64,000 nt of DNA from Methanothermococcus sp. Ax23 (GCF_049075655.1 NZ_CP157522.1:1-64000), one strand, 5' to 3'. Shown: positions 1-64,000, counted from the stretch's first letter. Translations and numbers: made by a program. Notes: generated from the sequence alone by a model not told the origin.

Positions 1-819
1 ATGATAAAAGTGGCCATTACAGGAGCTCTCGGAAGAATGGGAAGTAATATAATAAAAACACTGTGTGAAAATCCAGAGGAGTTTAAGGTAGTTGCAGCAA
101 TAGATGTGCCAAACCATCCAAAAAAAGGAATGGATATTGGAGAGTTAATAGGGCTAGGGAATATAGACGTTCCTTTGGAAACATCCGATAATTTGGACAG
201 TGTCTTAAAGGAAACAAAACCCGATGTTTTGATTGATTTTACTGCTCCTGCACCATGTGTAAATACTGTTAAAATAGCTTCATCAAATGGTATTAACTTA
301 GTAATTGGAACCACAGGATTTACAGAAGAACAAAGAAAAGAAATGGAAGAAGCTATTAATGAGAATAAGGTTGCAGCAGTAATCTCCCAAAATTACGCAA
401 TAGGTGTAAATATATTCTTCAAAACATTGGAATTTTTGGCAAAAAAACTTGGAGATTACGACATTGAAATTGTTGAAATGCACCATAGATTTAAAAAGGA
501 TGCTCCAAGTGGAACTGCACTGAGAGCCGCAGAGGTTATTCAAAACAACCTAAACAGAGATTCAAAATTAATATACGGTAGAGAAGGACTTGTTGGAGAA
601 AGAACCAAAGAAGAGATATGTATTCACGCACTTAGAGGTGGAGATGTAGTTGGAGACCATACTGTAATATTTGCAGGTGATGGAGAAAGATTAGAGCTCA
701 CCCATAAAGCAAGTAGCAGACAAGCATTTGTGCATGGAGTAGTTTTGGCAGCTAAATTCATTTCGCAGAAAAAAGAAGGAATATATAATACATTTGATGT
801 TTTAGGTCTCAATGAATAA
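1..819 (+). CDS. dapB: 4-hydroxy-tetrahydrodipicolinate reductase
   Basis: GALGRMG NAD(P) motif, [21 protein letters not shown] catalytic motif. Confidence 0.97.
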
Positions 820-889
820 GGATTCATTATTTAACATGTTTAACATGTTATTTCACTATTATTTTTTTATACGCATATATGGTGAAAAT

Positions 890-1519
890 TTGAGAGAATT
901 CATATTAAAAGCAAATAAGGCAATAACCTCAGGAGATGTTAATTTAAAAGACCTCCCGGGAAGTTGCGGTAGGTTAGATTTAGTATGCAGATGTGTTAGC
1001 AGTGCATTTTTTCTTTCCCATGATTTAAGAAGGGATACTGTGTTTTACTCAGTTCATTATGGGAATCCAAGTCCGCCAGTAGCATTAAAATTTATGGGCT
1101 CTGAATTAAAAAGAGTTAGTCCTGATGAAAGAGGTATTGCCATTTTTATAAAAAAGGCACTAGAAAAAGAACACCTAAGTATTTGGAAAGAAAGTACACC
1201 CGGGATTTATCACGCTAAAAAAGAATTTAGAGATATCATATTGGAAAGAAATAAAGAAGGAAAAAAAATTTTTTATCTCCATAAAGATGGGAAGCCTATT
1301 GAAGAATTGTTTAACCCTGCCCAATATAAAAAAGACGTTGTTTTTGTGTTAGGAGACCATATGGGCATTGGAGAAGAGGATGAGAACTTTTTAGATGAGA
1401 TTGGAGCAGAAAGGGTTTCAATCTCCCCATTAGAATTGCATGCAAACCATTGCATTGTCATTGTCCACAATATTATGGACAAAATTGAATGTTTACATGT
1501 TTCCAATAATATTAATTAG
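890..1519 (+). CDS. trmY: tRNA (pseudouridine54-N1)-methyltransferase, SPOUT family
   Basis: [33 protein letters not shown]; likely TTG start at 890 after GGTGA RBS (track start 812 is probably too long). Confidence 0.9.
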
Positions 1520-1632
1520 ATTTATTTCCATAATAATTATTATAATTTTTAAAAAAATTTCTTAACGATAACATTGTGCTTAAATTTAATAGGTTAATAA
1601 CCTATGCTAATGTCAGTTTTGAGGTGATATGT

Positions 1633-2082
1633 ATGAATGATGTGCCAAAAGTTGTTGTTTTTAAACTCTCTTCAAATGAGTATGGATTAAAAGTGGATGA
1701 AGTTAGAGAAGTTTTAAAACTTCAAGATATTACTGCGTTACCCAACAGTCCTGATTATGTTGTTGGTGTTACAAATATTAGGGGTGAAATCACTCCAATT
1801 ATCGATTTGAGAAAAAAGTTAAATATATATGGCAATTTCGAAGAAAATGATGCCAATAATAAAGAAATGTTGGTCATGGTGATAGAGATTGAGGGAGTCC
1901 CTGTGGGTATTTTAGTAGATGCGGTCAATGACGTCCTGCAAATATCCAACGATCAAATTGAAAATTTGGGGGAAATAGGGAGAAACATGAGTGGAGAGTA
2001 CATTGAAGGGATAGCAAAAATAGAAAATAGATTGATAATATTACTAAATATCAATAATCTTATAAACCCACAGGAATTATAA
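1633..2082 (+). CDS. cheW: chemotaxis coupling protein CheW
   Basis: GVTNIRGEITPIIDL, GILVDAV; ATG 1633 after GAGGTGA. Confidence 0.95.
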   Translation: MNDVPKVVVFKLSSNEYGLKVDEVREVLKLQDITALPNSPDYVVGVTNIRGEITPIIDLRKKLNIYGNFEENDANNKEMLVMVIEIEGVPVGILVDAVNDVLQISNDQIENLGEIGRNMSGEYIEGIAKIENRLIILLNINNLINPQEL

Positions 2083-2120
2083 CATATATAACATATTTGT
2101 AAAGCCAAAGGAGGGATATT

Positions 2121-3236
2121 ATGAAAAAGATAAAAGTATTGGTGGTAGATGACTCTGCATTCATGAGAAAAATGGTTTCAGATATATTAAGTTCCGATAA
2201 TGATATTGAGGTAGTAGGGAATGCAAAAGATGGTGTGGAGGCTGTCGAGCTCACTCAAAAATTGAGCCCAGATGTAATTACAATGGACGTGGAAATGCCC
2301 AGAATGAATGGACTTGAAGCTGTTAAAAAAATAATGGAAATAAAACCTACTCCAATATTGATGCTATCTGCATTAACGAAAAAGGGAGCTGTGGAGACCC
2401 TTGAAGCCCTAGAATATGGTGCAGTTGATTTTATTCAAAAACCCTCAGGAACTATTTCATTAGATATTAGGAAAATAGGGGAGGAGTTAATAAACAAGGT
2501 AAAATCGGCTTCAAGGGCATATGTTAGAAGAAGGGTAGCCACACCTCAAAGACGTGAAAGAATTGGAGGAATTAGAGGAACACATGATGTTGAGGAAACT
2601 CATGAAAAACCTATATCAGGAGTTAATGTTGAAATACCAACTGAGAAACTTAAAAATTCGGCGGTCATAATAGGTTCATCAACAGGTGGTCCACCAATAG
2701 TTTCAGAAATCATATCTAAACTCCCAAAAAACATGCCTCCTATATTTGTAGTTCAACACATGCCAAAAGGATTTACAAAAATGTTTGCAAGCAGATTAGA
2801 TGCAGGGTCAGTGCTAACTGTAAAAGAAGCTCAGGATGGGGAGTTGGTAAAACCAGGACATGTCTATGTAGCACCGGGCGATTGTCAGATGCTACTGAGA
2901 AAAAGAGGGAATGACACATATATAAAATTGGACAGTCAGATGCCAAAGGTTCATGGAACAAAACCTTCGGTGGATGTTACTGCTGAATATGTATCAAAAA
3001 TATATGGTAAAAACACAGTAGGTGTAATTTTAACCGGAATTGGTCGAGACGGAGCATATGGGCTGAGTCTAATAAAGAAAAAAGGTGGGAAAATAATAGC
3101 CCAAAATGAAGAGACCTGTGTAGTTTTTGGTATGCCAAAAGCTGTTATTGAAATGAACATTGCAGACGCAATATTGCCCACATCAAAAATACCTGAAGCT
3201 ATTGTAAAATTTGTTAAAGATATAGTAGGGGGATGA
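2121..3236 (+). CDS. cheB: chemotaxis response regulator protein-glutamate methylesterase
   Basis: receiver domain VLVVDDSAFMR plus methylesterase motifs GSSTGGP, VQHMP, LTGIGRDG. Confidence 0.96.
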   Translation: MKKIKVLVVDDSAFMRKMVSDILSSDNDIEVVGNAKDGVEAVELTQKLSPDVITMDVEMPRMNGLEAVKKIMEIKPTPILMLSALTKKGAVETLEALEYGAVDFIQKPSGTISLDIRKIGEELINKVKSASRAYVRRRVATPQRRERIGGIRGTHDVEETHEKPISGVNVEIPTEKLKNSAVIIGSSTGGPPIVSEIISKLPKNMPPIFVVQHMPKGFTKMFASRLDAGSVLTVKEAQDGELVKPGHVYVAPGDCQMLLRKRGNDTYIKLDSQMPKVHGTKPSVDVTAEYVSKIYGKNTVGVILTGIGRDGAYGLSLIKKKGGKIIAQNEETCVVFGMPKAVIEMNIADAILPTSKIPEAIVKFVKDIVGG

Positions 3237-6145
3237 AAATGGATGATATGGAACAATATAAGGAATTATTCATGGCTGAAGCTACGGAACATCTCGAGTC
3301 CTTGAATCAAAACATGGTTGAACTTGAAAAAAATCCAGAAAATAAAGATATTATAAATTTAATATTCAGGTCTGCACATACATTGAAGGGTTCAGCAAGA
3401 ACTCTTGGGTTTGAGGATATATCCTCCCTTACCCATCATATGGAAGATATATTGGATTATGTTAGGGATGACAAGATTCCCGTAACTTCTGAGATTATGG
3501 ATTTGTTATTTGACTGTCTTGATGCTCTTGAAACTATGGTCAATGAAATTGAGGAGGATGTTGATACCACATCTGTTGATGTTGATAGCATAATTAATGA
3601 AATAAAAAGATTAAAAGATAAATATCTTGGTGGAGGAGGAGCTCCCGCGGCAGATGCGCCACAAAGTAGTAGTAGTTCAGATGAAAAACAGGGTGAAGAA
3701 AAAGAAGAAACGGTTGAGTCCAGCGTTACTAAAAGTACTAAATCTATTGTAAGTGTCATATTAAAAGAACCAGAAACTACGGTAAAAATCAAAAAAACAG
3801 CTGTAAATGAAGGAGAAAATTTAGACGAAAAAAATTATGAGGAAATAAAAAAACCAAAAAATCTTAATGAAATCCTTGAACAAATGAGTAAATCTGTCGA
3901 AGTTCTTAAAATAGTTGCTGATGCTCTTAGCTATGATGATTTGAAAGAAACCTTGGCAAAGATAAATGATTTAGTTAATCATGTCATGGCTGAAGATATT
4001 GTATTTAATAAATCAGTTATGGAAGCATTAAAGTATTCACTAGATGCAATGGAAAAAATTGCAAAATCAGTTGAAGAAAATGGAAGTATTGATGAATTGG
4101 ATATAGATTTATCTGAATTAAATGAAAAAATAGATAATGCAATAACTATTAAAGAGGAACAGCGGAGCTCACCTGAAATTACTGAGGAAGAATATGAGGT
4201 TGTTTTAGACCATTCCAAGTTTGATTTAAATAAACATGCCGACCACTTAAAGGAAATGATAGATAAAGGTTATAAGTTATACCATTTAAAATCCAAAACC
4301 TCAGAAGATTGTGATTTAAAATCTGTTAGGTTATCTATGTTAGTATCCAATATAAAAAAAATCGGGGAAGTTTTAATTTCAACCCCTAGTGAAGAAGAAA
4401 TTAAGGAAAAAAGCTACGATGAACTTGAAATTATTTTTCTGTCCGATAAACAGTTAGACGAGATAATGAAAATTCTCGACACAGTATGTGAAATGGAATA
4501 TATTGCAATATCCCCAGTGGACATAGAGTTTAAAATTGAAGAAATAGAGGAAGAAGTAAAAACAGATGACAAGACCAGCGACGATGGTGGTGGTGATGAT
4601 AATGAAGCAAGTGATGATAGACTAAAAGACGCGTATAAATTAAAAATAATAATTGATAATGAATGTATTTTGAAATCTGTTCGAGCATATATGGCCATAA
4701 AAGAACTTGAAAATATGGGAGAAATAATTAAAACAGAGCCCCCTTATGAGAAACTTCGAGATGGTGAATTTGAAGATAACGAGATTATAGTATATATAAT
4801 ATCAAATAATGAAGGGGATGATTTAAAAGAAGCAGTATTTAATATCCCAGAAATAAAAGAAGTCATTGTAGAAGCCCCTGAATATTTAAAGGAACAATCA
4901 AGTGAGAAAAAAACATCTGAATCACGTGGAAAAAATATTGCTTCCACCAAATCAAAAACCTCAAAGAAGAAGCCTTCTGAAAAATCAGGAGAAAAGAAGA
5001 CATCAACTCAAACTGTAAGAATAAATATTGAAAAATTAGACAAACTTATGAATTTAGTTGGTGAATTAGTTATAAATAGGGCAAATTTTACCCAGATTGC
5101 AAACAACTATAATATTAAAGAACTACACAATGCTGTGAATAGACTTAATATGCTTGCTACTGAGCTCCAAGAAGAAGTTATGGCTATGAGAATGATACCA
5201 GTATCTTTTATATTTAACAGGTTTCCTAGAACTGTGAGGGATACTGCAAAAGCACTTAATAAAGAGGTTGAATTAATAATCGAAGGTTCAGATATTGAAC
5301 TTGATAGGACCGTATTGGATGAGCTCGCGGAACCCTTGACACATATTATTAGAAACTCATTAGACCACGGTATCGAAACTCCAGAAGAGAGGGAGAAGAA
5401 AGGAAAACCTAGAAAGGGAACTCTAAAATTAATAGCTACAAGAGAAAGAAATCATGTGCTTATCACAATTGAAGATGATGGTAAAGGAATAGACCCTGAA
5501 ATTATAAGGAGGAAAGCTGTGGAAAAAGGAGTTGTATCAGAAGATGAAGTCAATAAATTATCTGATCATGAAGTCATTAATCTTGTATTTTTGCCAGGAT
5601 TTAGTACTGCTGAAAAAGTTTCAGATGTTTCTGGAAGGGGAGTTGGAATGGATGTTGTAAAATCTAAAATAGAGTCTCTTGGAGGTAGTGTATCATTATA
5701 CTCCGAAAAAGAAAAAGGCACAAAGATAATACTTCAATTACCTTTAACAATGGCAATTATTCTCGTATTATTAATTAAATTAAGGGACCAAGTTTATGCA
5801 ATACCATTAACAAGTGTTTTAGATGTCACCCATGTTAGAAAAGACGATATAACAAATTTAGAAGGTCAGGATGCTATCATATACAGGGACCATATACTGC
5901 CAGTAGTTTGGTTAAAGGATATACTCAATGACTATTCCTACGGGGAGCCTGAAGAAGAAGTTTATGTGGTAGTCATAGAACGAAACAAAGGAAAATTGGG
6001 CGTGGTAGTTGACGATGTACTTGGAAGGGAAGAAATTGTTGTTAAACCACTTACTGGCATTTTGAAAAATATTCATGGTCTTGCAGGAGCCACAATATTG
6101 GGTGATGGAAGGGTAGCACTCATACTGGATTTAAACAATGCATAG
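3233..6145 (+). CDS. cheA: chemotaxis histidine kinase CheA (long form)
   Basis: Hpt FRSAHTLKG, RNSLDHG, DDGKG, GFSTA..SGRGVGMDVV, C-terminal CheW domain. Confidence 0.97.
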   Translation: MKMDDMEQYKELFMAEATEHLESLNQNMVELEKNPENKDIINLIFRSAHTLKGSARTLGFEDISSLTHHMEDILDYVRDDKIPVTSEIMDLLFDCLDALETMVNEIEEDVDTTSVDVDSIINEIKRLKDKYLGGGGAPAADAPQSSSSSDEKQGEEKEETVESSVTKSTKSIVSVILKEPETTVKIKKTAVNEGENLDEKNYEEIKKPKNLNEILEQMSKSVEVLKIVADALSYDDLKETLAKINDLVNHVMAEDIVFNKSVMEALKYSLDAMEKIAKSVEENGSIDELDIDLSELNEKIDNAITIKEEQRSSPEITEEEYEVVLDHSKFDLNKHADHLKEMIDKGYKLYHLKSKTSEDCDLKSVRLSMLVSNIKKIGEVLISTPSEEEIKEKSYDELEIIFLSDKQLDEIMKILDTVCEMEYIAISPVDIEFKIEEIEEEVKTDDKTSDDGGGDDNEASDDRLKDAYKLKIIIDNECILKSVRAYMAIKELENMGEIIKTEPPYEKLRDGEFEDNEIIVYIISNNEGDDLKEAVFNIPEIKEVIVEAPEYLKEQSSEKKTSESRGKNIASTKSKTSKKKPSEKSGEKKTSTQTVRINIEKLDKLMNLVGELVINRANFTQIANNYNIKELHNAVNRLNMLATELQEEVMAMRMIPVSFIFNRFPRTVRDTAKALNKEVELIIEGSDIELDRTVLDELAEPLTHIIRNSLDHGIETPEEREKKGKPRKGTLKLIATRERNHVLITIEDDGKGIDPEIIRRKAVEKGVVSEDEVNKLSDHEVINLVFLPGFSTAEKVSDVSGRGVGMDVVKSKIESLGGSVSLYSEKEKGTKIILQLPLTMAIILVLLIKLRDQVYAIPLTSVLDVTHVRKDDITNLEGQDAIIYRDHILPVVWLKDILNDYSYGEPEEEVYVVVIERNKGKLGVVVDDVLGREEIVVKPLTGILKNIHGLAGATILGDGRVALILDLNNA

Positions 6146-6154
6146 GTTGGTAGT

Positions 6155-6619
6155 ATGGTAATAAAAGTTAAAATGGGTGGTTTTGAGGTTTCAAAAAGTC
6201 CTGAGGTTCTTGAAACATTGTTAGGTTCTTGTGTGGCTATAATGCTCTATGATATGGGTAAGAGGGTTGGAGGAATGGCACATATAATGCTTCCAGAAAC
6301 AAGGGATATGAACACTAGAATGCCTGGAAAATACGCCAATACTGCTGTTCCAGCACTAATAACCAGCATGGTAGTTCTTGGAGCAAGACCTAATAAGCTT
6401 AGAGCAAAGTTAGCTGGTGGTGCAGCAATGTTCAAATCCAAGTCTAAGGCTATTGATGTAGGGGCAAAAAACGTGGAAGCAGCCAGACAGAACTTAAAAA
6501 AGCATGGAATAAGAGTAATAGGCGAGGATGTAGGGGGCACATCCGGTAGGACGGTTAAATTCTTCCTCAAAGATGGAAAAGTGATTAGTATACATAAGGG
6601 TCGTGAAAAAATTATTTAA
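6155..6619 (+). CDS. cheD: chemoreceptor glutamine deamidase CheD
   Basis: [32 protein letters not shown]. Confidence 0.95.
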
Positions 6620-8067
6620 TGGTGAAATACATGGTATTCAGCCTATCAATAGGGAGTTTAATATCAAAATCAGATAAGAACAATTTGATTGAAAAAATAT
6701 GTGAGATTGTAAGTATAGATGCCAACATAGTAAAGAATAATCCTGAAGAATTAATTAAAAGAATTGAAAATTTGTGCGAAAATGAAAAACGTTTTGAAGA
6801 GTATAAAAAAGAAACCTTAAAAGTATTTAAGGAACTTAATGAACTTGCAGAGAAGTTGGAAAAAGGAGATCTAACCGTTAGAGCTAATGAAGAGGGTAAA
6901 TGGAATAAATTCCAAAAATCCTTAAATCGGGCGTTAGATGGTATTTCAAATTCGATTGAAAGTCTAAAGGCACAAATAAATACCCTAAATAATGAACTCG
7001 AAAGTATAAAAGATGGAATCGAAAGAGCAAAGGAAACCTCAGACCAGGTGGCAGATGCAGCTTCACAGGTTGCTACAGCAGCAACTGACCAATCTACAAA
7101 ATTACAGGATGTTTCACAGGATTTAGAAAGCACAGGAGAAGTTGCTGATAATGTTTACAATGCAGCAGTGGAAGCTGTGGAAGCAGCAAATGAAATTGAA
7201 AATAATTCAGAAACTGGAGTTAAGAAGGTAGAAAATGCAATAGACACCATGCAGAGAATAGCAAACGTAATAGACGACTTGGGAAGAGCCATCCAAGGAC
7301 TTGGAGATGAGAGTAAGAAAATCAACGAAGTTACTGTATTGATTAAGGATATTGCTGAACAGACTGGATTATTAGCACTAAACGCTTCTATTGAAGCTGC
7401 AAGAGCTGGAGAAGCTGGAAAAGGATTTGCAGTTGTTGCAAGTGAAATTAAATCACTTGCAGAAGAGATTGGAAAATCTGTTGATGATATAAACAAAACA
7501 ATCACTGGAATACAGGGTCAGGTTGAAAAGACCATTGATTTGGGATTAACCGGTAAGGATGAAGTTGATAAAGGAGTTGTAGCAATAGATGAGGTAAATA
7601 ATGCATTTATGAAAATTAAAGAAAGTGTAGATAAGGCAGCTGAAAAGATAAATGCAATGAAAGAAGGTGCTAAACAGGCATCCGAGAACGTGCAGCAGGC
7701 TTTAAGAAATGTTCAGGATATCGCTTCAATATCCGAAGAGTTTGCTGCAACAGCTGAAGAATTAACAGCAAGTGCGGAAGAACAAAATAGAGCGATTGAA
7801 GATATAGACACATCTATTGAGGAGTTTGATGAGATTTCACGAACGATTTCAAAAAATATTGATGTATTTAGGTCTAATCCAAATGAATGTGTGAATTTAC
7901 CTAAATGTCCATATATTCATAACCCAAATCTTGACCCAAAAATTGCGGAGGAGTTGAAAAACAAATATTGTAAAGGGGATTATACTCTTTGTGAAAGATA
8001 TAAATTAAAATCTTCTGGAAAACCAGTCCCTGAGGATTTATCCCCTGACGGAAAAACATACATATAA
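6619..8067 (+). CDS. cytoplasmic methyl-accepting chemotaxis protein with C-terminal 4-Cys domain
   Basis: MCP hairpin tip [30 protein letters not shown]; no clear TM helix; Cys-rich tail after the signalling domain. Confidence 0.9.
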
Positions 8068-8586: not shown

Positions 8587-8636
8587 CATCCAAATAGATT
8601 ACATTATTGCTTAAAATATATGTGGAGAGGGTAAAT

Positions 8637-19778: not shown

Positions 19779-20630
19779 ATGATGAATGATAATTTAATCA
19801 AAACTAAGAAACTTGGGAAAAAACCAAAAGATTTTCTCCCTTCGCTTCGTCAGGCGTTATTAAATCTACCAAACACTAAAAAAATTATTGCCGTTGTTGT
19901 TATTATTTTAGGATTAGGATTTTTAAGTTATGGGTATTTTAATAATATAATTCATTTCATAAATTTGGGAATAGGATTGATATTAATTGGATGGGTTGTA
20001 TTGGCATTTTCATATGAAAAATATTTAAAATATGATATAAGTTCTAGTGTTTTTAATGATTATATGGATTTAATTGGAAAATTGATAAAGAGTTTAGATA
20101 TAAAAACCAGTGGAGTAGTTATTCCTCCAAGAGAAAATCTAAAAAATGGCTGTATATTCCTCCCGCTGAATGAAAATTTTAAGATAAACTTTGGCCTACT
20201 CGATGACAGAGTTTTATTCGTAAATTCAGACAATAAAAACGAAATGGGAATAATGTTCTCACCATTGGGGAAGGGTTTTATTAATATACTGAAAAAATAT
20301 GGGGATGGTGAATATATAGACGAAGTAAGAGCTCAGGACAATATCGAGGAATATTTAAATTATTCATTGAATCTTTTTCAGATTGGGGATGATGTTAATG
20401 TAAATTTTGAGGACGACACTGGCAATATCACAATATCCTACAAAATAAACGATAACAATGTATGTAAAAGATTCCAGAAGGAAAATTTGTGCAAAAAATG
20501 CCCGTGTCCAGTATGTGGTTTTATAATATTAAGCCTCGCAAAATCATTGAATAGTATATTAAAAATAGAGGAAATAACCGAAGATAATAAAAATATAATT
20601 ATTAAATTGACGGTGATGGATAATTCATAA
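19779..20630 (+). CDS. hypothetical membrane protein with C-terminal Cys cluster
   Basis: two N-terminal TM helices; C..CKKCPCPVC near C-terminus; palindromic element in the N-terminal coding region. Confidence 0.7.
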   Translation: MMNDNLIKTKKLGKKPKDFLPSLRQALLNLPNTKKIIAVVVIILGLGFLSYGYFNNIIHFINLGIGLILIGWVVLAFSYEKYLKYDISSSVFNDYMDLIGKLIKSLDIKTSGVVIPPRENLKNGCIFLPLNENFKINFGLLDDRVLFVNSDNKNEMGIMFSPLGKGFINILKKYGDGEYIDEVRAQDNIEEYLNYSLNLFQIGDDVNVNFEDDTGNITISYKINDNNVCKRFQKENLCKKCPCPVCGFIILSLAKSLNSILKIEEITEDNKNIIIKLTVMDNS

Positions 20631-20672
20631 TAATCAGTTTAGAGCTCACCTTCATTTCATTCAGGTGATTAA

Positions 20673-20915
20673 ATGAAATATAAGTTAATATTCTTAATTA
20701 TACTTGTATCATATATAACATTTATATCCATTTTTGTAAATGATGTTAAATTGTTCCTTACTTTGTTGCTTATAGGTTTTTTGATACTCTATGAGTTATT
20801 TAGATATTATTTTAAGAAGAGAATTCAGGATAATCTAGATATTATGGCCTATGTAGGTATTGGGATATTTATTATAATAGTATTTCAGAAAATCTTGGAA
20901 ATCCTTAATCGCTAA
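20673..20915 (+). CDS. small hypothetical membrane protein
   Basis: 80 aa, about three hydrophobic segments, AGGTGA RBS. Confidence 0.65.
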   Translation: MKYKLIFLIILVSYITFISIFVNDVKLFLTLLLIGFLILYELFRYYFKKRIQDNLDIMAYVGIGIFIIIVFQKILEILNR

Positions 20916-21514
20916 TGTTTAATTTTATATGCCAGTAAAAATATACCTGTAAATCCTATGATAAGAGATATTTGGGATTTTGGATTGGATATTAAATCTG
21001 GATAAAATACATACAGCATATATATAATAGATATAGGGATGACAACCATTGAAATGGTTTTTAATATTAAAATTTTATTTATTTTATCCAATTCATCCTG
21101 GAAATTTAGATATAATGCATAAATTAAAAATATCACATATACTGCGGTTATCACCAAATTACTAAATTCAAAACCTATTATATTCATTATATAATACAAT
21201 CCCAGTGGAATAATGAAAATTACAGTTTTGGCATCTACACCAATATCTTTTTTTAGGATGGATTCTAAACCTAGTAATGAAGGAATTATTGAATATATCA
21301 GTGCATATATAAAATCTAGCGAAAAAATGTTTTTAACGAATAATTCATTAGATAACCATATTAATACTGCTAAATAAATAATAAACCCTAGAAATTTTTT
21401 AAAATATGTCAGCAATATCGACAGTATGATGCCCATCAATAGGTATTCTTTATAAGGAATATTTAGAAAAATTATCCCTTCCAACAGCAATAAAATTCTA
21501 TACATAATAAACAC
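20912..21514 (-). CDS. hypothetical multi-pass membrane protein
   Basis: strongly hydrophobic; last gene of MoxR/DUF58 run. Confidence 0.7.
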   Translation of the reverse strand: MFIMYRILLLLEGIIFLNIPYKEYLLMGIILSILLTYFKKFLGFIIYLAVLIWLSNELFVKNIFSLDFIYALIYSIIPSLLGLESILKKDIGVDAKTVIFIIPLGLYYIMNIIGFEFSNLVITAVYVIFLIYALYLNFQDELDKINKILILKTISMVVIPISIIYMLYVFYPDLISNPKSQISLIIGFTGIFLLAYKIKH

Positions 21515-28211: not shown

Positions 28212-28408
28212 AGTATCAACAACTTTAAATTTATTTTTTATATAGGTATTATGCAAAGGAGTATAAAAAAATATTTATATCGTCCAAACTTAAATTATAT
28301 TAAATTAAATAAACAATGGTATTCTTGAATTATTTAGGGTATTATTTAGGTGCCACTTATGGAAGCACCACCGTTTATATTTAAATAGTATGATGGTGAT
28401 TAATAATT

Positions 28409-30049: not shown

Positions 30050-30814
30050 ATGAATAATAAGGAATTAACTGATAAATTAACCAATTTTGTAAAAAACATG
30101 GTTAAAAATGCCAATGCAAAGGGAGTAGTAGTTGGTCTAAGCGGGGGCATAGATAGCTCATTAGTGGCTACATTGTGTGTAAAGGCACTTGGAAAAGATA
30201 GAGTTTTAGGAGTAATAATGCCCGAGAAGAATTCAAATCCAATGGATAAAGAGCATGCCGAATTAATTGCAAAAAAACTCGGCATAAAATATATAGTTTC
30301 AGATATAACAGATATTTTAAAGGCATTTGGAGCAGGGGGATATGTTCCAACAAGGGAATTTGATAAGGTGGCAGATGGAAATCTTAAACCAAGAATAAGG
30401 ATGTGCATATTGTATTACTTTGCAAATAAAAACAATTTGCTTGTTGCAGGAACTTCAAACAAATCAGAAATATACATGGGCTATGGAACAAAATACGGAG
30501 ATTTAGGAAGTGATTTTTTATTAATAGGAAACCTCTTTAAAACAGAAGTTAGAGAGCTCGCAAAATATTTGGGTGTTCCTGATGAAATAATAAACAAGGC
30601 ACCATCAGCAGGACTTTGGGAAGGTCAAACTGATGAGGCGGAGCTCGGAATAACTTATGAACTTCTTGATAAAATTTTAATGAGAATTGAAAATAATATG
30701 GATAAGGAATCAATTTCAAAGGAATTAAATGTTTCTATTTCGAAAATAGATGATATTTTAAAAAGAATAGAATTAAACAGACATAAATCAGAGCCATTGC
30801 CTATACCAAAATGA
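30050..30814 (+). CDS. nadE: NH3-dependent NAD+ synthetase
   Basis: GLSGGIDS, GYGTKYGD, KAPSAGLWEGQTDE. Confidence 0.96.
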   Translation: MNNKELTDKLTNFVKNMVKNANAKGVVVGLSGGIDSSLVATLCVKALGKDRVLGVIMPEKNSNPMDKEHAELIAKKLGIKYIVSDITDILKAFGAGGYVPTREFDKVADGNLKPRIRMCILYYFANKNNLLVAGTSNKSEIYMGYGTKYGDLGSDFLLIGNLFKTEVRELAKYLGVPDEIINKAPSAGLWEGQTDEAELGITYELLDKILMRIENNMDKESISKELNVSISKIDDILKRIELNRHKSEPLPIPK

Positions 30815-30939
30815 TTTAGATGATATTATATTTTTGAATAATATATTTATATTCATATCTATTTTCATCTTTAATTTTTTAATATATTGCATTTTACATT
30901 TTATATTTGCAAGATTTTCAGCCATTTTATTGTGATAAT

Positions 30940-31344
30940 ATGAAAAGAGAGGAATATTTTTTAAAACTCATTGAAACCATTGATGAACTTAAATATGAGA
31001 GTAAAAGTGGTATTCCCATACTTGTTGAGGGAAAAAAGGATATTGCATCGTTAAAGAAATTGGGCATCGATGGGAATTTTATAACTGTTTCATGCATGCC
31101 CTTTTTTGAAATTGCAGATGAGCTCGTAAAACAGGGTGTCAAAGAAGTTATTTTATTAACCGACTTTGACCGGGCTGGAAAACAGCATGCTAGGGAAATC
31201 ATAACAGAGCTCGAAAGAAAAAGAATTAAAGTAAATAAAAACATTAGAAGAGACATAATAAAATATGGTCATGGAGATTTAAAGGATATTGAAAGCTTGT
31301 ATCGCTATATTGTTAGAAAATGTGGAGATTTGGAGCATCTATAA
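30940..31344 (+). CDS. small TOPRIM-domain protein (UPF0292-like)
   Basis: ILVEGKKD, ILLTDFDRAG. Confidence 0.85.
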   Translation: MKREEYFLKLIETIDELKYESKSGIPILVEGKKDIASLKKLGIDGNFITVSCMPFFEIADELVKQGVKEVILLTDFDRAGKQHAREIITELERKRIKVNKNIRRDIIKYGHGDLKDIESLYRYIVRKCGDLEHL

Positions 31345-31383
31345 AGGTATATGTAATTATACCTATGATAATAATATGCGTAA

Positions 31384-32097
<714 letters not shown>

Positions 32098-34183: not shown

Positions 34184-34234
34184 GATAATTTATAATTTAC
34201 TTTTTATTATTTATTATAAAATTGGTGAGCTCCT

Positions 34235-38715: not shown

Positions 38716-38921
38716 ATATTACAAGGAACATTATATAGCATATATTATTTACGAATGCTATATATAGTAAATGCTGTGGGAGCTCACATTTATAATAAAA
38801 ATTGGGGGAGATTCCAAACTTGCTTCTAACTATTTAACCATAATATTAGGAGTAGTTATGAAATTCGAAGATTTTGTTTTTGGACGCCCCCCCTGTGATA
38901 AAATTAAAATAGGTTGATTAT

Positions 38922-43465: not shown

Positions 43466-46400
43466 ATGAAAGAGGTTAAAGGAACAGTTAATTTTAGAGA
43501 AATGGATAAAGAAATAAAAAAATTTTGGGAAGATAATGAAATATACCAAAAGGTAAAAAAACTAAACGAACACTATCCAGAATATTATTTTGTAGATGGT
43601 CCTCCATACTGTTCTGGTGCGATACATTTGGGAACTGCATGGAATAAAACAATAAAAGACACAGTATTGAGATTTAAGAGAATGCAAAATTATAATGTTC
43701 TCGATAAAGCGGGCTGGGATATGCACGGGCTTCCTATTGAAGTAAAGGTTGAAAATGAATTCAACATAAAATCAAAAAAGGACATTGAAACAAAAATTGG
43801 AACAACAGAATTTATTGAAAAATGTAAGGAATTTGCACTGAGAAATAAGGAAGTAATGGAGAATCAGTTTAAAAATTTAGGAATATGGCTTGACTGGGAA
43901 AATGCATACATGCCTATAAAAAACGACTATATAGAGTCAGGATGGTGGAGTTTAAAAAAGGCACATGAAAAAAATCTTCTTTCAAAAGATTTAAGGGTTG
44001 GATATTGGTGTCCAAGATGTGAAACTTCACTTGCAGAACATGAGGTAAGAGGAGAATATAAAGAAGTTCTCGACCCATCAGTTTATGTTAAATTTAAACT
44101 AATGGATGAAAAAGAAAAAGATACCTACCTTGTAATTTGGACAACAACACCATGGACTTTAATGTCAAATCTTCTTGTTTCAGTTCATCCAGATTTCGAT
44201 TATGCCTATGTTGAAGTTGTTTTAGAAAGAGATGGAGAAGAGATAAAAGAAACATGGATAATAGCTGAGGCATTAGTTGAGGAAGTGATGAAAAAGGCAG
44301 GTAAAAGCAACAATATAAAATCTTACAACATAATAAAGACAGTAAAAGGAGCGGATTTAGAAGGGATAAAATATATACATCCACTGCTGGAAGAAAACGA
44401 AAGACAGAAAGAATTTGCAGAAATCGAAAATGCCCATACTGTGGTATTGGGCGAGCATGTTAGTTTAGATGGTGGAACAGGTTTAGTTCATACTGCACCA
44501 GGGTTTGGTGAAGAGGACTTTGAAGTTGGTAAAAAATACGATGTTCCGATATATTCCCCAATAGATGACGAAGGAAGATATATAGAAGGAAAATGGAAAG
44601 GAACCTTTGTAAAAGATGCTGATGACGATGTAATAGAAACATTAAAAAATAAAAATCTCTTAGTTTCAGCTGGAAAGATAAAGCACACGTATCCGCACTG
44701 TTGGAGATGTAAAACACCACTTTTATTTAGAGCTACGGAGCAATGGTTCTTAACTATATCAAAGATAAAGGATGACATAATAGAGCATGCAAAAACCGTT
44801 GATTGGGTGCCAAACTGGGTAGAAACAAGGTATATAAATGGAGTTAAGTTCGTTGGAGACTGGAATATATCAAGGCAGAGATACTGGGGAATACCACTTC
44901 CAATATGGGTATGTGAAGAATGCGGAAAATATGAAGTTATAGGAAGTGTTGAAGAATTAAAGGAAAAAATGATAAACGACATTCCATTGGATGATTTGCA
45001 TAAACCAACAGTTGATAAGATTATTTTAAAATGTAGCTGTGGAAAGGAAATGAAGAGGGTGCCTGATGTTCTCGATGTCTGGTATGATTCAGGACTTGCT
45101 CCTTATGCTTCAATAAATGCCAAAGAACTTAAAAAAGCTGATTTCATCGTTGAAGGAAATGACCAAGTTACAAAATGGTTCTATTCCCAGCATGCATTAA
45201 GTGCAATTGTATTTAACGATATACCATACAAAAAATGTATGATGCACGGATTTGCACTTGATGAAAACGGAAACAAAATGAGTAAAAGTTTAGGAAATGT
45301 TGTAAATCCTGATGAAGTAGTGGAAGAGTATGGTGCGGATTTACTGAGGTATTATTTACTTAGTGCAAACAAGGCATGGGAAGATATAAGATTCTCATAC
45401 AATGAGCTCGGCGAGGTAAAAAGTTTATTCAATACACTTTGGAACTCATACACATTTGCAGTTAATTATATGGTGCTTGATAACTTTGTTCCAAATGAGG
45501 AATATATGAATTATTTAAGGGATGAAGATAAATGGATAATAAGCAAAATAAACAGCTTAACAAAGGAAATAATTGAGGATTTAGAAATTCCGCATCTCCA
45601 TTCATACACATGGAAATTAAGGGAATTCATACTTAATGATTTAAGCAGATGGTATATTAAACTCATAAGAAGCAGAACATGGATGGAGAAGGACGACCCT
45701 GACAAGCTTTCAGCATACCAAACATTATACTATGTTTTAATGAAATTGATTACAATCCTATCGCCAGTTGCACCGCACATAAGCGAAAAGATATATCAAA
45801 ACATGAAAACAGAGGATATGCCAGAAAGTGTATTCATGAATAAAATAACTATTGATGAGGAACTCATAGACAGAACACTTGAAGAAGATATTGAGGTTGT
45901 AAGGGAAATTGTAGATGCCATATTGAGAGGAAGGGACAAGGTAAAACACACACTGAGGTATCCAATATCAAAAATAATACTTCCAAAGAGCATTGAAAAT
46001 GTAGTGGAAAAATACGGATATATCATAAAAGAACAAGGCAATGTTAAAGAAATAGATGTTGAAGAGTTCAAAGGAAACATGACTGTTAAGCCAAATTATA
46101 GAGAGCTCGGAAAGGTATTCAAAAGTGAAGTTCCAAATGTTGTAAAAATCATTAACTCCATGAATCCAAATGAGCTCAGTGAAAAATTGAAAGAAGAAGG
46201 AAAAATAACAATTGATGGATATGAGATAAAACCTGAATATGTTGAGTTTAAAATAGAAATTCCAGAAAACATTGTTGGTATGGAGTTTTCAAAAGGAAAT
46301 GTTTATATAAACATTGAACTAACTGAGGATATTATAAAAGAAGGGCTTATGAGGGAGGTAATTAGAAGAATCCAGTCAATGAGAAAAGATATGGATTTGG

Positions 46401-46588
46401 ATATTGAAGAGAAGATAAAGGTAAAAATGGAAGGCATTGAATTCAGTGAAGATACATTAAAATCCATTGAGAAAGAGGTTAGAGGAACATTCTTTGATGA
46501 AATAAAACCAGATTATGAACAGGAATGGGAAATAAAGACACCAAATAAGGAAGTTTATAGGATAAAAATAGGGGTAGAAAAATTATAA
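43466..46588 (+). CDS. ileS: isoleucyl-tRNA synthetase (archaeal type)
   Basis: DGPPY..HLGT, GWDMHGLP, WTTTPWT, ISRQRYWG, KMSKS. Confidence 0.98.
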   Translation: MKEVKGTVNFREMDKEIKKFWEDNEIYQKVKKLNEHYPEYYFVDGPPYCSGAIHLGTAWNKTIKDTVLRFKRMQNYNVLDKAGWDMHGLPIEVKVENEFNIKSKKDIETKIGTTEFIEKCKEFALRNKEVMENQFKNLGIWLDWENAYMPIKNDYIESGWWSLKKAHEKNLLSKDLRVGYWCPRCETSLAEHEVRGEYKEVLDPSVYVKFKLMDEKEKDTYLVIWTTTPWTLMSNLLVSVHPDFDYAYVEVVLERDGEEIKETWIIAEALVEEVMKKAGKSNNIKSYNIIKTVKGADLEGIKYIHPLLEENERQKEFAEIENAHTVVLGEHVSLDGGTGLVHTAPGFGEEDFEVGKKYDVPIYSPIDDEGRYIEGKWKGTFVKDADDDVIETLKNKNLLVSAGKIKHTYPHCWRCKTPLLFRATEQWFLTISKIKDDIIEHAKTVDWVPNWVETRYINGVKFVGDWNISRQRYWGIPLPIWVCEECGKYEVIGSVEELKEKMINDIPLDDLHKPTVDKIILKCSCGKEMKRVPDVLDVWYDSGLAPYASINAKELKKADFIVEGNDQVTKWFYSQHALSAIVFNDIPYKKCMMHGFALDENGNKMSKSLGNVVNPDEVVEEYGADLLRYYLLSANKAWEDIRFSYNELGEVKSLFNTLWNSYTFAVNYMVLDNFVPNEEYMNYLRDEDKWIISKINSLTKEIIEDLEIPHLHSYTWKLREFILNDLSRWYIKLIRSRTWMEKDDPDKLSAYQTLYYVLMKLITILSPVAPHISEKIYQNMKTEDMPESVFMNKITIDEELIDRTLEEDIEVVREIVDAILRGRDKVKHTLRYPISKIILPKSIENVVEKYGYIIKEQGNVKEIDVEEFKGNMTVKPNYRELGKVFKSEVPNVVKIINSMNPNELSEKLKEEGKITIDGYEIKPEYVEFKIEIPENIVGMEFSKGNVYINIELTEDIIKEGLMREVIRRIQSMRKDMDLDIEEKIKVKMEGIEFSEDTLKSIEKEVRGTFFDEIKPDYEQEWEIKTPNKEVYRIKIGVEKL

Positions 46589-53390: not shown

Positions 53391-53391
53391 A

Positions 53392-58422: not shown

Positions 58423-58593
58423 AATATCACTTTGACATTTAAATATTTATATATTATCTAATAATAAAACAGTTATTATATATTATTGATAACTAATATT
58501 AAAATATATTTTATATTTCATATATTATTTATTAAGTATGATATTAATATATTATAAAATTATTATTTAGAAAATTACTATTTAGGCGAGATT

Positions 58594-59382: not shown

Positions 59383-59401
59383 AAAAGTTAAATGTGAAAA
59401 T

Positions 59402-60436: not shown

Positions 60437-60550
60437 ATCTAAAAAATATTTAAATAATCATGCATAATGGATTTTGACTAAAAAAATAAGATAATAAAAA
60501 AATAAGTAGCATCAAATAAGAATTGTTAATAACCGTGAAAAGGTGATATT

Positions 60551-61396
60551 GTGTATTTTGAAGATTTTTCTAAATATATATGTGCCTACTCTGATTTTGA
60601 AGATGCTGATTTTGTAATGTTCGGAATTCCATACGATGCCACAACTTCCTACAAACCAGGAACAAGATTTGGACCAGATGAAATAAGAAAGGCATCATGG
60701 GGGTTGGAAACATTCAGCCCAGTATTGAAAAAGGATTTAATTGATGTGAATGTATGTGATTTATACAATATCATCATTGAAGGAACCCAAATGGACATTA
60801 TTGAAAGGTCATACAACGCATCCAAAAATATTATGGAAAAAGGCAAAATACCAATAATGATGGGCGGAGAGCATTCCATTACCTATCCCGTAGTAAAGGC
60901 TGTAAAGGATGTATATAATGATTTTGTTTTAATACAGTTTGATGCCCATTGTGATTTAAGAGAAGAGTATTTAGGCAATGAATATTCCCATGCAAGTGTA
61001 ATAAGAAGATGTTTTGATTTAACAAAGGATATTTATCAGTTTGGAATAAGAAGCGGAGATAAAGAAGAATGGGAATTTGGATGGGAAAATACAAATATAT
61101 CCATGGATTTACCTACAAAGGAAGATATAAAAGAAATTAAATCATTGGATAAACCCGTATATATTACAATAGATATTGATGTTTTAGACCCTGCCTATGC
61201 CCCTGGGACTGGAACCCCTGAGCCATGCGGATTTTCCACAAAAGAACTGATAAATTCACTGTATTTATTTAAGGAATTGAAAGATAACATAATAGGTTTT
61301 GATGTTGTTGAGATATCACCGCATTACGATATTGGAAACATCACATCTATTGCAGCGGCAAAAATAATAAGGGAGCTCATGCTAACAATAAAATAA
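60551..61396 (+). CDS. speB: agmatinase
   Basis: GGEHSIT, FDAHCD, DIDVLDP..PGTGTP; GTG start after AGGTGA. Confidence 0.93.
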
Positions 61397-61495
61397 AATA
61401 ATAAATTGGATAATAAATTAGATAATAAATTAAAAAAATCCACTTAATTTGCTGTTCGCCTACTACGTCGGCGAAATGCAGGAAAAGGAGATATA

Positions 61496-62662
61496 ATGAA
61501 TATAGGAACAGTTATTCACGGACCTGAAATAATCGACACTGGCTATGCAAAAAAGATTTTGGATATTTTAGAGGAATTTTCCAAAGAATATGGCATAAAT
61601 ATTAATATAAAGGCAAAACTCGGCGGAACTATGGGACGAGTAGCTGTAATAGATAATGGTTTGGAGGATGTAATTGATATTTCGGAAAAACTCGTCCCAT
61701 CCATGAGTTTGAAAAAATTAGGGAATAATGATATTTTAATTTTAATGAATTACGGAAAATCAAAGGAAACAGGGCACACATTTGGAAGAATCGTTGTAGG
61801 AAGAGCCGGAGTGCATAAACCAATAATACAGATAGAAAGACCAGGGGAAAAGGACGGAACAATTTTAATATGGAATAAAAATAAACATAATAATATTAAT
61901 AACGATATTGACAAAAATTTAAACCTTTTAATAGAATATCTCTCAAAAAAACTAAACTTGAATATTGAAGAATGCATAAGCAATGGGTTGGATGTTTGGG
62001 AAGAGGGAAACAAAGTATTTAGGAAACTACATGGTGTTGATGATGGAGAATCCATAATGATAAATGGCATAGTGGTGGGCAGAGCTCGGGGAGCTCCGGT
62101 AATTTTAGTATCCGAAAATAACAAATTAATAGATATAATCAACGGCGAGGTAAAATGGCATGGCGTTGAAAAACTGGGCGAGATTGATTTAAAAAGTGTT
62201 ATTATAAAGACAGGCATTCTAAGGAGGCATCCATCCAATATCAACAAGAATAAAAAAAATAAAACAATGGAAAAGAATAATTCGTCCAATGAATGCAATG
62301 AAGGGGAAATTGTCATTGTAAATCACGCAGGAGAGGATGTTTTAGAGGAAATAAAAAATAAAAATGTTTCTGCGGTAATCACTATTGGGGACGACACAAC
62401 AACCATTTGCGGAGACATTTTAGCAAGATTTGATATTAAGATAATAGGCATTACAGATGGGGACAGGGATGAGCTCTTAAAAAATCCAATAATCACAGAA
62501 GGCTCAAATATATTTTTAATAAAAAACTGCAAGGATGACGATGTAGGGAAGATGTTGGAAGGAAAATTAAAGAACAAAAAAATGACATATACTGATACCT
62601 TAAATTATATAAAAGAACTTCTAAATAAAAATAAAATTGATTATTGTATTGATGAATATTGA
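61496..62662 (+). CDS. DUF2117-like methanogen protein
   Basis: VIHGPEIID, LGGTMGRVAVID, TIGDDTT, IIGITDGD. Confidence 0.75.
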   Translation: MNIGTVIHGPEIIDTGYAKKILDILEEFSKEYGININIKAKLGGTMGRVAVIDNGLEDVIDISEKLVPSMSLKKLGNNDILILMNYGKSKETGHTFGRIVVGRAGVHKPIIQIERPGEKDGTILIWNKNKHNNINNDIDKNLNLLIEYLSKKLNLNIEECISNGLDVWEEGNKVFRKLHGVDDGESIMINGIVVGRARGAPVILVSENNKLIDIINGEVKWHGVEKLGEIDLKSVIIKTGILRRHPSNINKNKKNKTMEKNNSSNECNEGEIVIVNHAGEDVLEEIKNKNVSAVITIGDDTTTICGDILARFDIKIIGITDGDRDELLKNPIITEGSNIFLIKNCKDDDVGKMLEGKLKNKKMTYTDTLNYIKELLNKNKIDYCIDEY

Positions 62663-62686
62663 TTATAGTATAAAAAGGGGTAGATT

Positions 62687-63568
62687 ATGGATTTAGAAAA
62701 TTCATTTTTAAATGCAATTTCAGAAAGTTTTAAAGCATATGATAAATACGGAGCTCGAAGCAATAAAAAATTGATACCAATTCATAAATGGTTTGCGAAA
62801 GTTATTGAGAATAAATTAGGAGATAGATATTATACAAAATGTTTAGGCAATGGTGGAGAATATAAATTAAATGGTAAATACTACCCAAAAAATTTGGATA
62901 TATCCATATTCAATAAAGAAACTGATAAATTGGTAGCAACAATAAGTTTTAAATTCGTGACTTCTAACTATAAACAAAATGCTAATAATTATTTTGAAAA
63001 TTTATTGGGAGAAACGGCAAATATTAGACGAGTAAATGTAGGATTTGCACACTTTTTAGTATTACGGGGACATACGCCATATTACACAAAAAATAAAGGC
63101 AACTTAAGGGGAGAACTTAAAAAAATAGAATTAATTTCTGAAAAAGATTTAATGAAGTATATTAAATTATATAATGATTTAGATTTTCCACATAAACCAA
63201 ATGTTTTAGGAATTGCTTTAATAGATTTTGATGACAGTGAAAATGCGTATTTTGTAGATTTAGATAGCATGAAAATTTCAGAAGAGGATATTGGTAAGAT
63301 AAATAAAATATTAGAAAAAGCAGGATTTTCAAATGAAAAAATCAATGAAATAAATAAAAAGCTAAAAGAAGTAGGATTTTCAGAAGCAGATATTGAAGAA
63401 ATAGAGAAAGAGTTAAAAAAAGCAAAAATACCAAAAAAAGATATTAAAGAAATAAATAAATTTTTAAACAATATTGGATTTTCAGAAAAAGGTATTAAAG
63501 CATTAAATGAAATGTCGTTAAACAAATTTATAAAACGAGTTGTTGGATTATGTCAGCTGATGGATTGA
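62687..63568 (+). CDS. putative type II restriction endonuclease with 17-aa tandem repeat insert
   Basis: overlaps a DNA MTase gene; possible PD-(D/E)xK-like core KNLDISI..ISFKF; family assignment is mainly from context. Confidence 0.55.
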   Translation: MDLENSFLNAISESFKAYDKYGARSNKKLIPIHKWFAKVIENKLGDRYYTKCLGNGGEYKLNGKYYPKNLDISIFNKETDKLVATISFKFVTSNYKQNANNYFENLLGETANIRRVNVGFAHFLVLRGHTPYYTKNKGNLRGELKKIELISEKDLMKYIKLYNDLDFPHKPNVLGIALIDFDDSENAYFVDLDSMKISEEDIGKINKILEKAGFSNEKINEINKKLKEVGFSEADIEEIEKELKKAKIPKKDIKEINKFLNNIGFSEKGIKALNEMSLNKFIKRVVGLCQLMD

Positions 63569-64000
63569 GCTCTAAAAAAATAGATAAAAATAAATTAAAC
63601 GGTGTGGTATATACCCCTAAATGGATAGTTGAAACAATTTTGGACAATTTAGGATATACTGTAAATAACAACATATATTATAAAAAAATAATTGACCCGT
63701 CTTGCGGGGATGGTGCTTTTTTAAAAGAAGTTGTTGAAAGGTTTATTACTGATGCCTTAAACTCAAATAAATCAATTTCCGAAATAAAAAATCTTTTAGA
63801 ACAGAATGTTTATGGAATAGATATTGATAAAAATGCTATTGAATTATGCAGAATTAATTTAACCAATATTGCTAAAAAATACGGCATCCATGATGTTAAT
63901 TGGAATTTGATAAATAATGATAGCACAGATAAAGCATGGATTTCAAAACTATTTAAAAAATTTGATTATGTTGTTGGAAACCCACCATATATTAGAATCC
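63550..64000 (+). CDS. amino (N6-adenine) DNA methyltransferase, gamma class, truncated by window end (not in ORF track)
   Basis: MSADGL..GVVYTP, IDPSCGDGAF, YGIDID, FDYVVGNPPY. Confidence 0.9.
   Translation, partial: MSADGLSSKKIDKNKLNGVVYTPKWIVETILDNLGYTVNNNIYYKKIIDPSCGDGAFLKEVVERFITDALNSNKSISEIKNLLEQNVYGIDIDKNAIELCRINLTNIAKKYGIHDVNWNLINNDSTDKAWISKLFKKFDYVVGNPPYIRI

Follow-up and report, generated by a model that had tools for sequence, protein, structure and literature searches.

The first 64,000 nucleotides of the main contig of Methanothermococcus sp. Ax23 (NZ_CP157522.1:1-64000; "the window" below always means this whole stretch) are crowded with copies of a single palindromic hexamer, GAGCTC, the recognition site of SacI. 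The window forms the start of contig C1 of a genome (G000) of 1,670,680 bases in two contigs, and it carries 63 of the 2089 sites of that genome, from the first at 23-28 to the last at 63567-63572. In 100 dinucleotide-preserving shuffles of the window the mean was 4.20 sites (standard deviation 2.04, largest 11), and none of the 100 reached 63. An earlier reading of the same sequence, hereafter the original prediction, had listed exactly these 63 coordinates, had expected 4-5 sites from composition and had put GC at about 31%, in agreement with the shuffles and with GC fractions of 0.287-0.344 in 8-kb windows. We found that GAGCTC is scattered almost randomly over the chromosome and the small second contig C2, in all reading frames and between genes, and that a hexamer-specific force acting at the DNA level creates and keeps it in some lineages, irrespective of genome position.

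Within the window, three sites that had been described as intergenic all lie between open reading frames (ORFs) of at least 200 amino acids: 20642..20647, between ORFs 19779-20630(+) and 20912-21514(-); 34227..34232, three bases upstream of a Trm5-like gene with its ATG at 34235; and 38780..38785, upstream of a DEAD-box helicase gene (38922-40517). The densest stretch, 30554..31975, has six sites in 1.4 kb (30554, 30641, 31120, 31207, 31420 and 31970), of which 31120 and 31207 fall in a gap between such ORFs (30815-31413). Three sites (45404..46177, + strand) belong to the isoleucyl-tRNA synthetase gene (43466-46588), which was used for fetching orthologues and for the tree described below. 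One pair lies only 9 bases apart (62082 and 62091; 62082..62096), and in the genome as a whole few sites lie less than 20 bp from the next. Between 5321 and 10837, 5.5 kb are free of sites; this stretch holds the end of a CheA gene and two methyl-accepting chemotaxis protein genes, and its GC content, 34%, is above average.

A sharply defined and hyper-abundant hexamer

Across the genome, GAGCTC occurs 2089 times (2085 on C1 and 4 on C2) where a dinucleotide model predicts 106, which is a 19.7-fold excess and a density of ~1.25 per kb (~1250 per Mb in a genome of 1.67 Mb). It stands first when all 4096 hexamers are ranked by enrichment; the next palindrome, ATATAT, reaches 1.8, and many other palindromes are strongly avoided. 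The 7.7-kb C2 is also enriched, with 4 copies against 0.23 expected. The signal is one exact hexamer, since none of the 18 single-mismatch variants is enriched: they occur 3-239 times each against 2085 for GAGCTC on C1, and their pooled observed/expected ratio (O/E) is 0.71 in G000 and 0.77 in its relative G012. These counts show that GAGCTC is a sharply defined, hyper-abundant palindrome at ~20 times its expectation.

A gene model of 1520 non-overlapping ATG-started ORFs of at least 90 amino acids, covering 83% of C1, divided the sites into 1892-1893 coding and 193 non-coding ones. When synonymous codons were shuffled within genes, so that the protein, every dipeptide and the per-gene codon usage were all preserved, the coding sites fell from 1893 to 184.5 +/- 13.1 (maximum 212 in 30 shuffles). 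The three frames, read as GAG CTC (E-L), xGA GCT Cxx (G/R-A-x) and xxG AGC TCx (x-S-S), contain 1069/605/219 sites compared with 80/80/25 expected, so the enrichment is 7.6x and 9x in the two frames that do not encode Glu-Leu. Among the 3836 Glu-Leu pairs, 1069 (28%) are written GAG-CTC, while GAA-CTC and GAG-CTT are used 56 and 53 times, and 39% of all CTC codons have GAG directly before them. Non-coding DNA, in which GAGCTC is again the top hexamer, has 193 sites against 6.8 expected (28x). On the strength of the synonymous shuffle and the non-coding counts, an artefact of codons or dipeptides is rejected. The excess thus survived the codon- and dipeptide-preserving shuffle on which the original prediction had staked its claim; the confinement to Glu-Leu frames that it had named as the other refuting outcome was not seen, and its description of all three frames holds genome-wide.

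Flanks and spacing

The bases around the hexamer are weakly biased in a mirrored way, with G preferred at -1, T disfavoured at -2 and T preferred at -5, and the profile is identical between coding and fully non-coding sites. The preferences for T at -5 and G at -1 recur in G000 and in the enriched relatives G012, G010 and G013, where T at -5 has a frequency of 0.43-0.49. A dispersed repeat family, such as miniature inverted-repeat transposable elements (MITEs) or repetitive extragenic palindromes (REPs), was considered and rejected, because the flanks are only weakly biased and the only site-bearing repeat has 2 copies. That repeat lies at C1:124946-125843, where ten GAGCTC are packed into 0.9 kb; its two ~75-base direct copies are each bounded by GAGCTC, flank ORFs under 90 amino acids and occur nowhere else in the genome.

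We found no preferred spacing between sites genome-wide. Full 50-kb bins hold 49-78 sites, the spacing has a coefficient of variation of 1.09, and the variance/mean ratio is 0.88-1.21 at scales of 1-50 kb. Genes with no site number 553, compared with 533 expected under a Poisson model, and sites are placed uniformly along genes except for a dip in the first tenth. Site density is unrelated to local GC (r = 0.02), and a periodogram over 3-200 kb showed no peak above what random placement gives (p = 0.37), by a method simpler than that of Xu et al. We read this as the spacing of a density-type process rather than a positional one, and it lends no support to the chromosome-organising signal that the original prediction had offered as an alternative. 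The longest stretches that are nearly free of sites, C1:113848-124946 (11.1 kb) and C1:1342927-1355393 (12.5 kb, one site), have a GC content of 26-27% and ORFs of ~350-430 amino acids, and may be recently acquired gene clusters.

Enriched and non-enriched relatives

The comparison set held 41 related genomes, 23 of them from the window's family; a phylum-level pattern search returned only the same Methanococcales (38 genomes). GAGCTC is enriched in five of the 41, with 2089 sites in G000, 2070 in G012, 1645 in G010, 1515 in G013 and 1321 in G003 (the last counted from ~1.4 Mb, 90% complete), and the other 36 have 4-490 copies each. On the partial sequences used for finer comparison (800 kb of G012, 480 kb of G005, 284 kb of G003, 200 kb each of G010 and G013), O/E in the four enriched relatives was 12-25x, for example 25x in G012, 22.5x in G010 and 12x in G013. 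G010 has extended the motif: 164 of its 205 sites are the octamer GGAGCTCC (308x), the frequency of G at -1 is 0.87, and GGGAGCTCCC occurs in 42 copies. In G000, G012 and G013, the octamer accounts for 14-16% of sites.

The opposite state is found in G005 (C1:1-480000), which has 3 GAGCTC against 52 expected, making it the most avoided palindrome there together with AAGCTT. AGCT itself is rare in every context, with 198 copies in 480 kb (0.41 per kb vs ~3 in enriched genomes), which suggests that AGCT-specific restriction has acted on this lineage for a long time. Another palindrome, CTGCAG, has an O/E of 4.2x in G005 and 3.5x in G013 (partial stretches) and 0.14x in the whole of G000.

A maximum-likelihood tree of isoleucyl-tRNA synthetase only, covering 30 of the 41 genomes (G001, G007, G011, G018, G021, G022, G030, G034, G035, G038 and G040 are omitted), placed G010 with G000, G003 and G012 (support 81/71). 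The sister of this group is a non-enriched clade of G002, G008, G004, G005, G006 and G009, and G013 is sister to another non-enriched clade (support 100/100). The enriched set is therefore not monophyletic on this single-gene tree, which calls either for two origins or for a single old one followed by two losses. At conserved Glu-Leu columns, G000 shares sites above chance with G010 and G013 (odds ratios 3.9 and 4.6; p ~1e-4), lineages at ~75% amino-acid identity to it, and this sharing favours an old origin for at least some sites.

Conservation, gain and loss of sites

Orthologues were paired as reciprocal best hits among ATG-started ORFs of at least 90 amino acids, with a required coverage of 70% or more of the longer protein, and the comparison was confined to alignment columns without gaps. 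In codon alignments with G012 (85% nucleotide identity), 316 of 400 G000 sites were kept, compared with 170 of 372 control Glu-Leu hexamers that were identical. Where sites differed, they mostly did so by 2-4 bases (61/84), while controls mostly differed by one (129/202). Intergenic sites behaved alike: 22 of 39 were kept vs 27% of all intergenic hexamers, and none of the 39 stood at one mismatch vs 23% of all intergenic hexamers.

A branch test on three genomes and their 79 shared genes, in which each branch was set against its own baseline of comparable hexamers, gave 11/84 sites changed on the G000 branch (13%; baseline 25-33%), 19/92 on the G012 branch (21%; baseline 41-55%) and 29/102 on the G003 branch (28%; baseline 23-31%). 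In G000 and G012 the sites thus turn over at a rate 2-2.5 times lower than that of comparable hexamers, but in G003 they keep pace with the background; GC-rich hexamers in general change faster than average. In G003, 57 of 309 G000 sites now stand at one mismatch, and there is no sign of a general relaxation of selection (nonsynonymous/synonymous ratio 0.29 vs 0.26 in G000). These results indicate that a force still holds the sites in G000 and G012 and no longer does so in G003. In the same 79 genes, silent AT-to-GC changes counted by parsimony exceed GC-to-AT changes by ~2:1 (1271 vs 517 in G000, 1056 vs 544 in G003), which fits a rise in GC from 29% to 32%.

New sites also arise. The 79 genes contain 15 sites specific to G000, 8 to G003 and 20 to G012, so that on the G000 branch 15 gains balance 11 losses; some of the G003-only sites sit in poorly aligned stretches and are to be discounted. 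Many lineage-specific sites have well-conserved surroundings, and 2-4 clustered base changes set them apart from both other genomes. Gains often replace residues, for example E-H to E-L, G-N-L to G-A-L and K-A-L to G-A-L. In aligned orthologues G000 has 765 Glu-Leu pairs vs 637 in G005 (~20% more), and sites in frames 1 and 2 occupy residues that are less conserved with respect to G005 than matched controls (0.37 vs 0.59 and 0.28 vs 0.44). Conservation, branch rates and lineage-specific gains together bear out the directional gain of sites at orthologous positions that the original prediction had proposed to look for.

Candidate methyltransferases and repair genes

We searched G000 for enzymes that could recognise or create the hexamer. 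Neither a C5 methyltransferase (PF00145) nor Vsr was found in this genome. Its DNA methyltransferases include a type III Mod, HsdM and two large Eco57I/MmeI-like enzymes, and the type III Mod and the MmeI-like enzymes were set aside because such enzymes read asymmetric sites. Within the window, two matches to a methyltransferase motif (27081-28256 and 34235-35281) proved to be RNA methyltransferases.

At the end of the window, a 293-amino-acid ORF without a Pfam family (62687-63568) overlaps the start of a 567-amino-acid Eco57I/TaqI-like N6-adenine methyltransferase; the two together extend to C1:65253 and are likely to be a type II restriction-modification pair. The pair was rejected as the cause, being present only in G000 and G003, and in G003 the 293-amino-acid gene is interrupted by several stops. 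A second likely type II pair, at C1:1437541-1439159, consists of a 300-amino-acid SPPY methyltransferase and a convergent 245-amino-acid ORF without a Pfam family. Versions of this pair were also found in G003, where it is broken, and, with 68-77% identity, in seven genomes of family f2 that are not enriched; none was found in G012, G010 or G013, so it too was rejected.

The third candidate was a 1069-amino-acid type IIG enzyme (C1:353653-356862), Eco57I/MmeI-like with a TaqI-like specificity domain. Over its whole length it shares 78% identity with a gene of G013; G012 has, on its own small contig C2, a gene that resembles it in the first half only (74%), and the specificity half differs. No counterpart was found in G010 or G003, and this enzyme was rejected as well. 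Relatives of it are also carried on small contigs of G030 and G031, and the family looks mobile. The motif [DNS]PP[YFW] is present in 20 ORFs of G000, and scans of six of them revealed no new DNA methyltransferase other than the type IIG enzyme. The small ORFs of C2 in G000 (1-7732) have no family matches, and no methyltransferase was found on it; a helicase-like protein appears to span the contig ends (668 amino acids plus an open-ended 570), as expected for a circular plasmid.

Among the enriched genomes, G012 has no PF01555 or PF00145 DNA methyltransferase above the cut-off, and the single strong methyltransferase of G010 in the same search (453 amino acids) has no counterpart in G000. Every enriched genome carries some DNA methyltransferase, with specificities not assigned; no member of PF00145, PF01555, PF02086 or PF02384 is common to all five, which leaves room for unrelated enzymes of the same specificity. 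RE_SacI had no match in 5 genomes, in a search run without a positive control. None of the 23 genomes in the window's family gave a MutS_V match, and NucS was found in none of the five enriched genomes and, above the cut-off, only in G017 within the family, so most of the family appears to be without either known mismatch-repair system. Products of deamination at the central C, GAGTTC/GAACTC, are not depleted (O/E 1.21 in G000, 1.10 in G012), and GAGCTT/AAGCTC, at 0.63-0.66, are no lower than other one-off variants. A pseudogene scan of 284 kb of G003, with 212 genes, flagged 7; by inspection, and with no family search behind it, none of the 7 had an obvious link to DNA.

Discussion

We propose, with a probability of about 40%, that GAGCTC is the recognition site of one homologous, putatively dimeric protein that binds or processes DNA sequence-specifically and gives site-bearing DNA a transmission advantage. 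A single homologous sequence-specific protein is inferred because the flank preferences are common across lineages, and the putative factor would bind TnnnnGAGCTCnnnnA specifically. The advantage could come from biased uptake or recombination between cells, or alternatively from biased gene conversion between genome copies; polyploidy has been reported in Methanococcales. An uptake signal was also among the alternatives that the original prediction had named. Molecular drive, or selection on site density, would then push tolerant positions to the exact hexamer and hold them there, in a way perhaps akin to DNA uptake sequences and to the reported role of cyanobacterial HIP1 in transformation, and methyl-directed mismatch repair would not be required. 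Lineages that lose the factor would decay neutrally, as G003 may be doing, and lineages that acquire an AGCT-cutting restriction system would purge their sites, as the G005 group may have done.

A bolder form of this proposal, which we regard as tentative and somewhat unlikely, is that archaea independently evolved a highly iterated palindrome (HIP) kept without DNA methylation or known mismatch repair, in which a single protein makes site-bearing DNA win in uptake, recombination or copy-to-copy conversion. On this view the hexamer would be a genomic watermark that propagates itself and rewrites codons and even amino acids, and that drifted to an octamer in one lineage, lost its driver in G003 and was purged by AGCT-specific restriction in a third. 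If so, a comparison of lineages in which it is on, off or altered could lead to the factor and, through it, to a general account of HIP-type motifs.

Several points weigh against a driver protein of this kind. Targeted family searches brought out no candidate, and ComEC (PF03772) was found in 0 of 41 genomes, with 10 of 14 control genomes positive and archaeal type IV-like pili outside the search, so that uptake, if involved, would use other machinery. The uptake sequences known so far span 9-12 bases and are not palindromes. Taken as a sample of invader DNA, 84 CRISPR spacers of G000 (3097 bases) hold 1 GAGCTC, which fits either host-like or background density. Conservation alone cannot separate ongoing drive from selection on a cellular function, and a site read so strictly, over six bases and without one-off variants, is what restriction-modification enzymes most typically recognise. 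Methyltransferases of unassigned specificity are present in each enriched genome, G003 has two broken restriction genes along with its lost maintenance, and the enriched genomes do not form one clade on the single-gene tree. The spacers come from arrays with a 30-base repeat at C1:147788-151246 and about C1:1162360-1183154.

Some of the same observations speak for a methylation-linked repair ratchet, which was the inference of the original prediction and follows Elhai's model of HIP1: a GAGCTC or AGCT methyltransferase would mark the sites, and mark-reading repair would convert near-cognates. Type II enzymes typically show such exact six-base specificity, without enriched one-off variants; in cyanobacteria, HIPs are accompanied by cognate methyltransferases (PMC4390886); the avoidance of AGCT in the sister lineage G005 implies that AGCT-recognising enzymes circulate in the group; and both the unassigned methyltransferases and the two broken genes of G003 would be in keeping with it. 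We nevertheless consider this explanation unlikely. PF00145 and Vsr were not found in G000, MutS_V in none of the 23 family genomes and NucS in none of the five enriched ones, and with neither these nor a shared methyltransferase found, a methylation-repair process is not supported. G012 has no PF01555/PF00145 enzyme above the cut-off, the 453-amino-acid enzyme of G010 has no G000 counterpart, and the two type II pairs of G000 and its type IIG enzyme were not found, or differ in specificity half, in some of the enriched relatives; deamination products are not depleted, and the RE_SacI search, which had no positive control, returned nothing in 5 genomes. The correlation with orphan methyltransferase or Vsr genes that the original prediction had suggested thus did not appear, as far as methyltransferase families in all five genomes and Vsr in G000 are concerned.

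Alternatively, GAGCTC could be bound by a protein that organises the nucleoid or chromosome and be kept by ordinary selection, along the lines that Xu, Lawrence and Durand suggested for HIP1. This would account for conservation above the synonymous and intergenic background, for the subset of sites common to lineages at ~75% amino-acid identity and for the symmetric flank preference reaching +/-5, which suggests a footprint of ~16 bp. It is made improbable by the Poisson-like spacing at all scales and the lack of periodicity at 3-200 kb (p = 0.37) and of enriched one-off variants, whereas Xu et al. describe HIP1 as periodic and its one-off variants as conserved (PMC5861425); moreover, the 7.7-kb second contig is enriched too, and close relatives dispense with the motif entirely. 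That the sites are fossils of an extinct process, now without function or driver, would suit G003, which retains ~1 site per kb while decaying at the background rate, and a search that found no causal gene. It is very improbable given that sites in G000 and G012 change 2-2.5 times more slowly than comparable hexamers, even though GC-rich hexamers change faster than average, and that gains on the G000 branch (15 in 79 genes) balance losses (11). Virtually no chance is left that the excess is an artefact, whether of codon choice, of dipeptides, of other words being avoided or of a dispersed repeat family. Glu-Leu pairs are indeed frequent and contain 1069 of the 1893 coding sites, and many other palindromes are strongly avoided, but the shuffle that keeps dipeptides and codons yields only 184.5, the other frames and non-coding DNA are enriched 7.6x, 9x and 28x, and the flanks are only weakly biased, with 2 copies of the sole local repeat that bears sites.

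This group offers unusually useful natural contrasts: two lineages maintain the motif, one has stopped, one has extended it and a sister avoids its core. With such contrasts among close relatives, comparative genomics should be able to find the causal gene, and transformation and binding assays could test what the motif does. What HIP1-type palindromes do and where they come from has been debated for ~thirty years, and an independent case in another domain tests which of the proposed HIP ingredients are needed; this archaeal case is without MutS, NucS, Vsr or a methyltransferase common to the enriched genomes, in the families searched. The motif shapes codon choice and protein sequence, which matters for codon-usage models and gene recoding for these organisms, and, as the SacI site, it affects cloning and restriction mapping in these strains.

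Comparison with known motifs

The literature searched contained nothing relevant on over-representation of GAGCTC or GGAGCTCC in Methanococcus or Methanothermococcus, in line with the original prediction, which knew of no description in Methanococcales. Among known motifs, parallels are offered by the DNA uptake sequences (DUS) of Neisseriaceae and the uptake signal sequences (USS) of Pasteurellaceae, which occur at ~1 copy per kb in core genes and all frames, with dialects and effects on proteins. GAGCTC resembles them in its density of ~1 per kb, its spread over the core genome in all frames, its measurable effects on proteins and its lineage dialects, and its accumulation, like theirs, could be explained by molecular drive alone. 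DUS and USS differ in being non-palindromic motifs of 9-12 bases with a known receptor and ComEC-type machinery, while ComEC was found in none of the 41 genomes here.

The excess of CCWGG in E. coli, which arises through Dcm and Vsr very-short-patch repair, is well under two-fold and is accompanied by depletion of the deamination product. It offers the precedent of a repair bias that creates a methyltransferase recognition site. GAGCTC differs in being 20-fold enriched, in a genome where neither a C5 methyltransferase nor Vsr was found, and in the lack of depletion of GAGTTC/GAACTC; the repair components Vsr, MutS_V and NucS that such a drive would use did not emerge from our searches. In Helicobacter with a CCGG restriction-modification system, CCGG is over-represented at a ratio of ~1.4-1.5, as given in a survey of recognition sites in prokaryotes, which does not mention an excess of GAGCTC (PMC4687349). 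That motif, like GAGCTC, is a type II palindrome that is over-represented rather than avoided; it has a cognate system and a ratio of ~1.4-1.5, whereas GAGCTC is enriched ~20-fold and a cognate system was not found.

The closest likeness is with the cyanobacterial HIPs, among them HIP1 (GCGATCGC). HIPs reach roughly 500-2500 copies per Mb and co-occur with cognate methyltransferases (PMC4390886, where the word archaea does not appear). HIP1 has a periodic distribution (10-90 kb) and conserved one-off variants, and Xu et al. state that its abundance is unseen outside cyanobacteria (PMC5861425). HIP1 also makes transformation more efficient, and a role as a watermark for uptake has been proposed for it (bioRxiv 10.1101/2024.09.10.611283; PMC13756078). 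Judged from these accounts, GAGCTC differs from HIP1 in being an archaeal hexamer of another sequence, with no enriched one-off variants, no periodic spacing found, no co-distributed methyltransferase found by family and no MutS/MutL for Elhai's ratchet. In other respects it agrees with HIP1 and the other HIPs: all are short palindromes with 500-2500 copies per Mb, tens of times more than expected, which occur in all gene frames and in intergenic DNA, are conserved between relatives beyond codon conservation, and have lineage variants and palindromic extensions (GGAGCTCC in G010) while some close relatives are without the motif. The label HIP-like given by the original prediction is thus apt, as GAGCTC behaves as a highly iterated palindrome at the DNA level and not as a codon artefact, and we read it as an archaeal counterpart of cyanobacterial HIP1.

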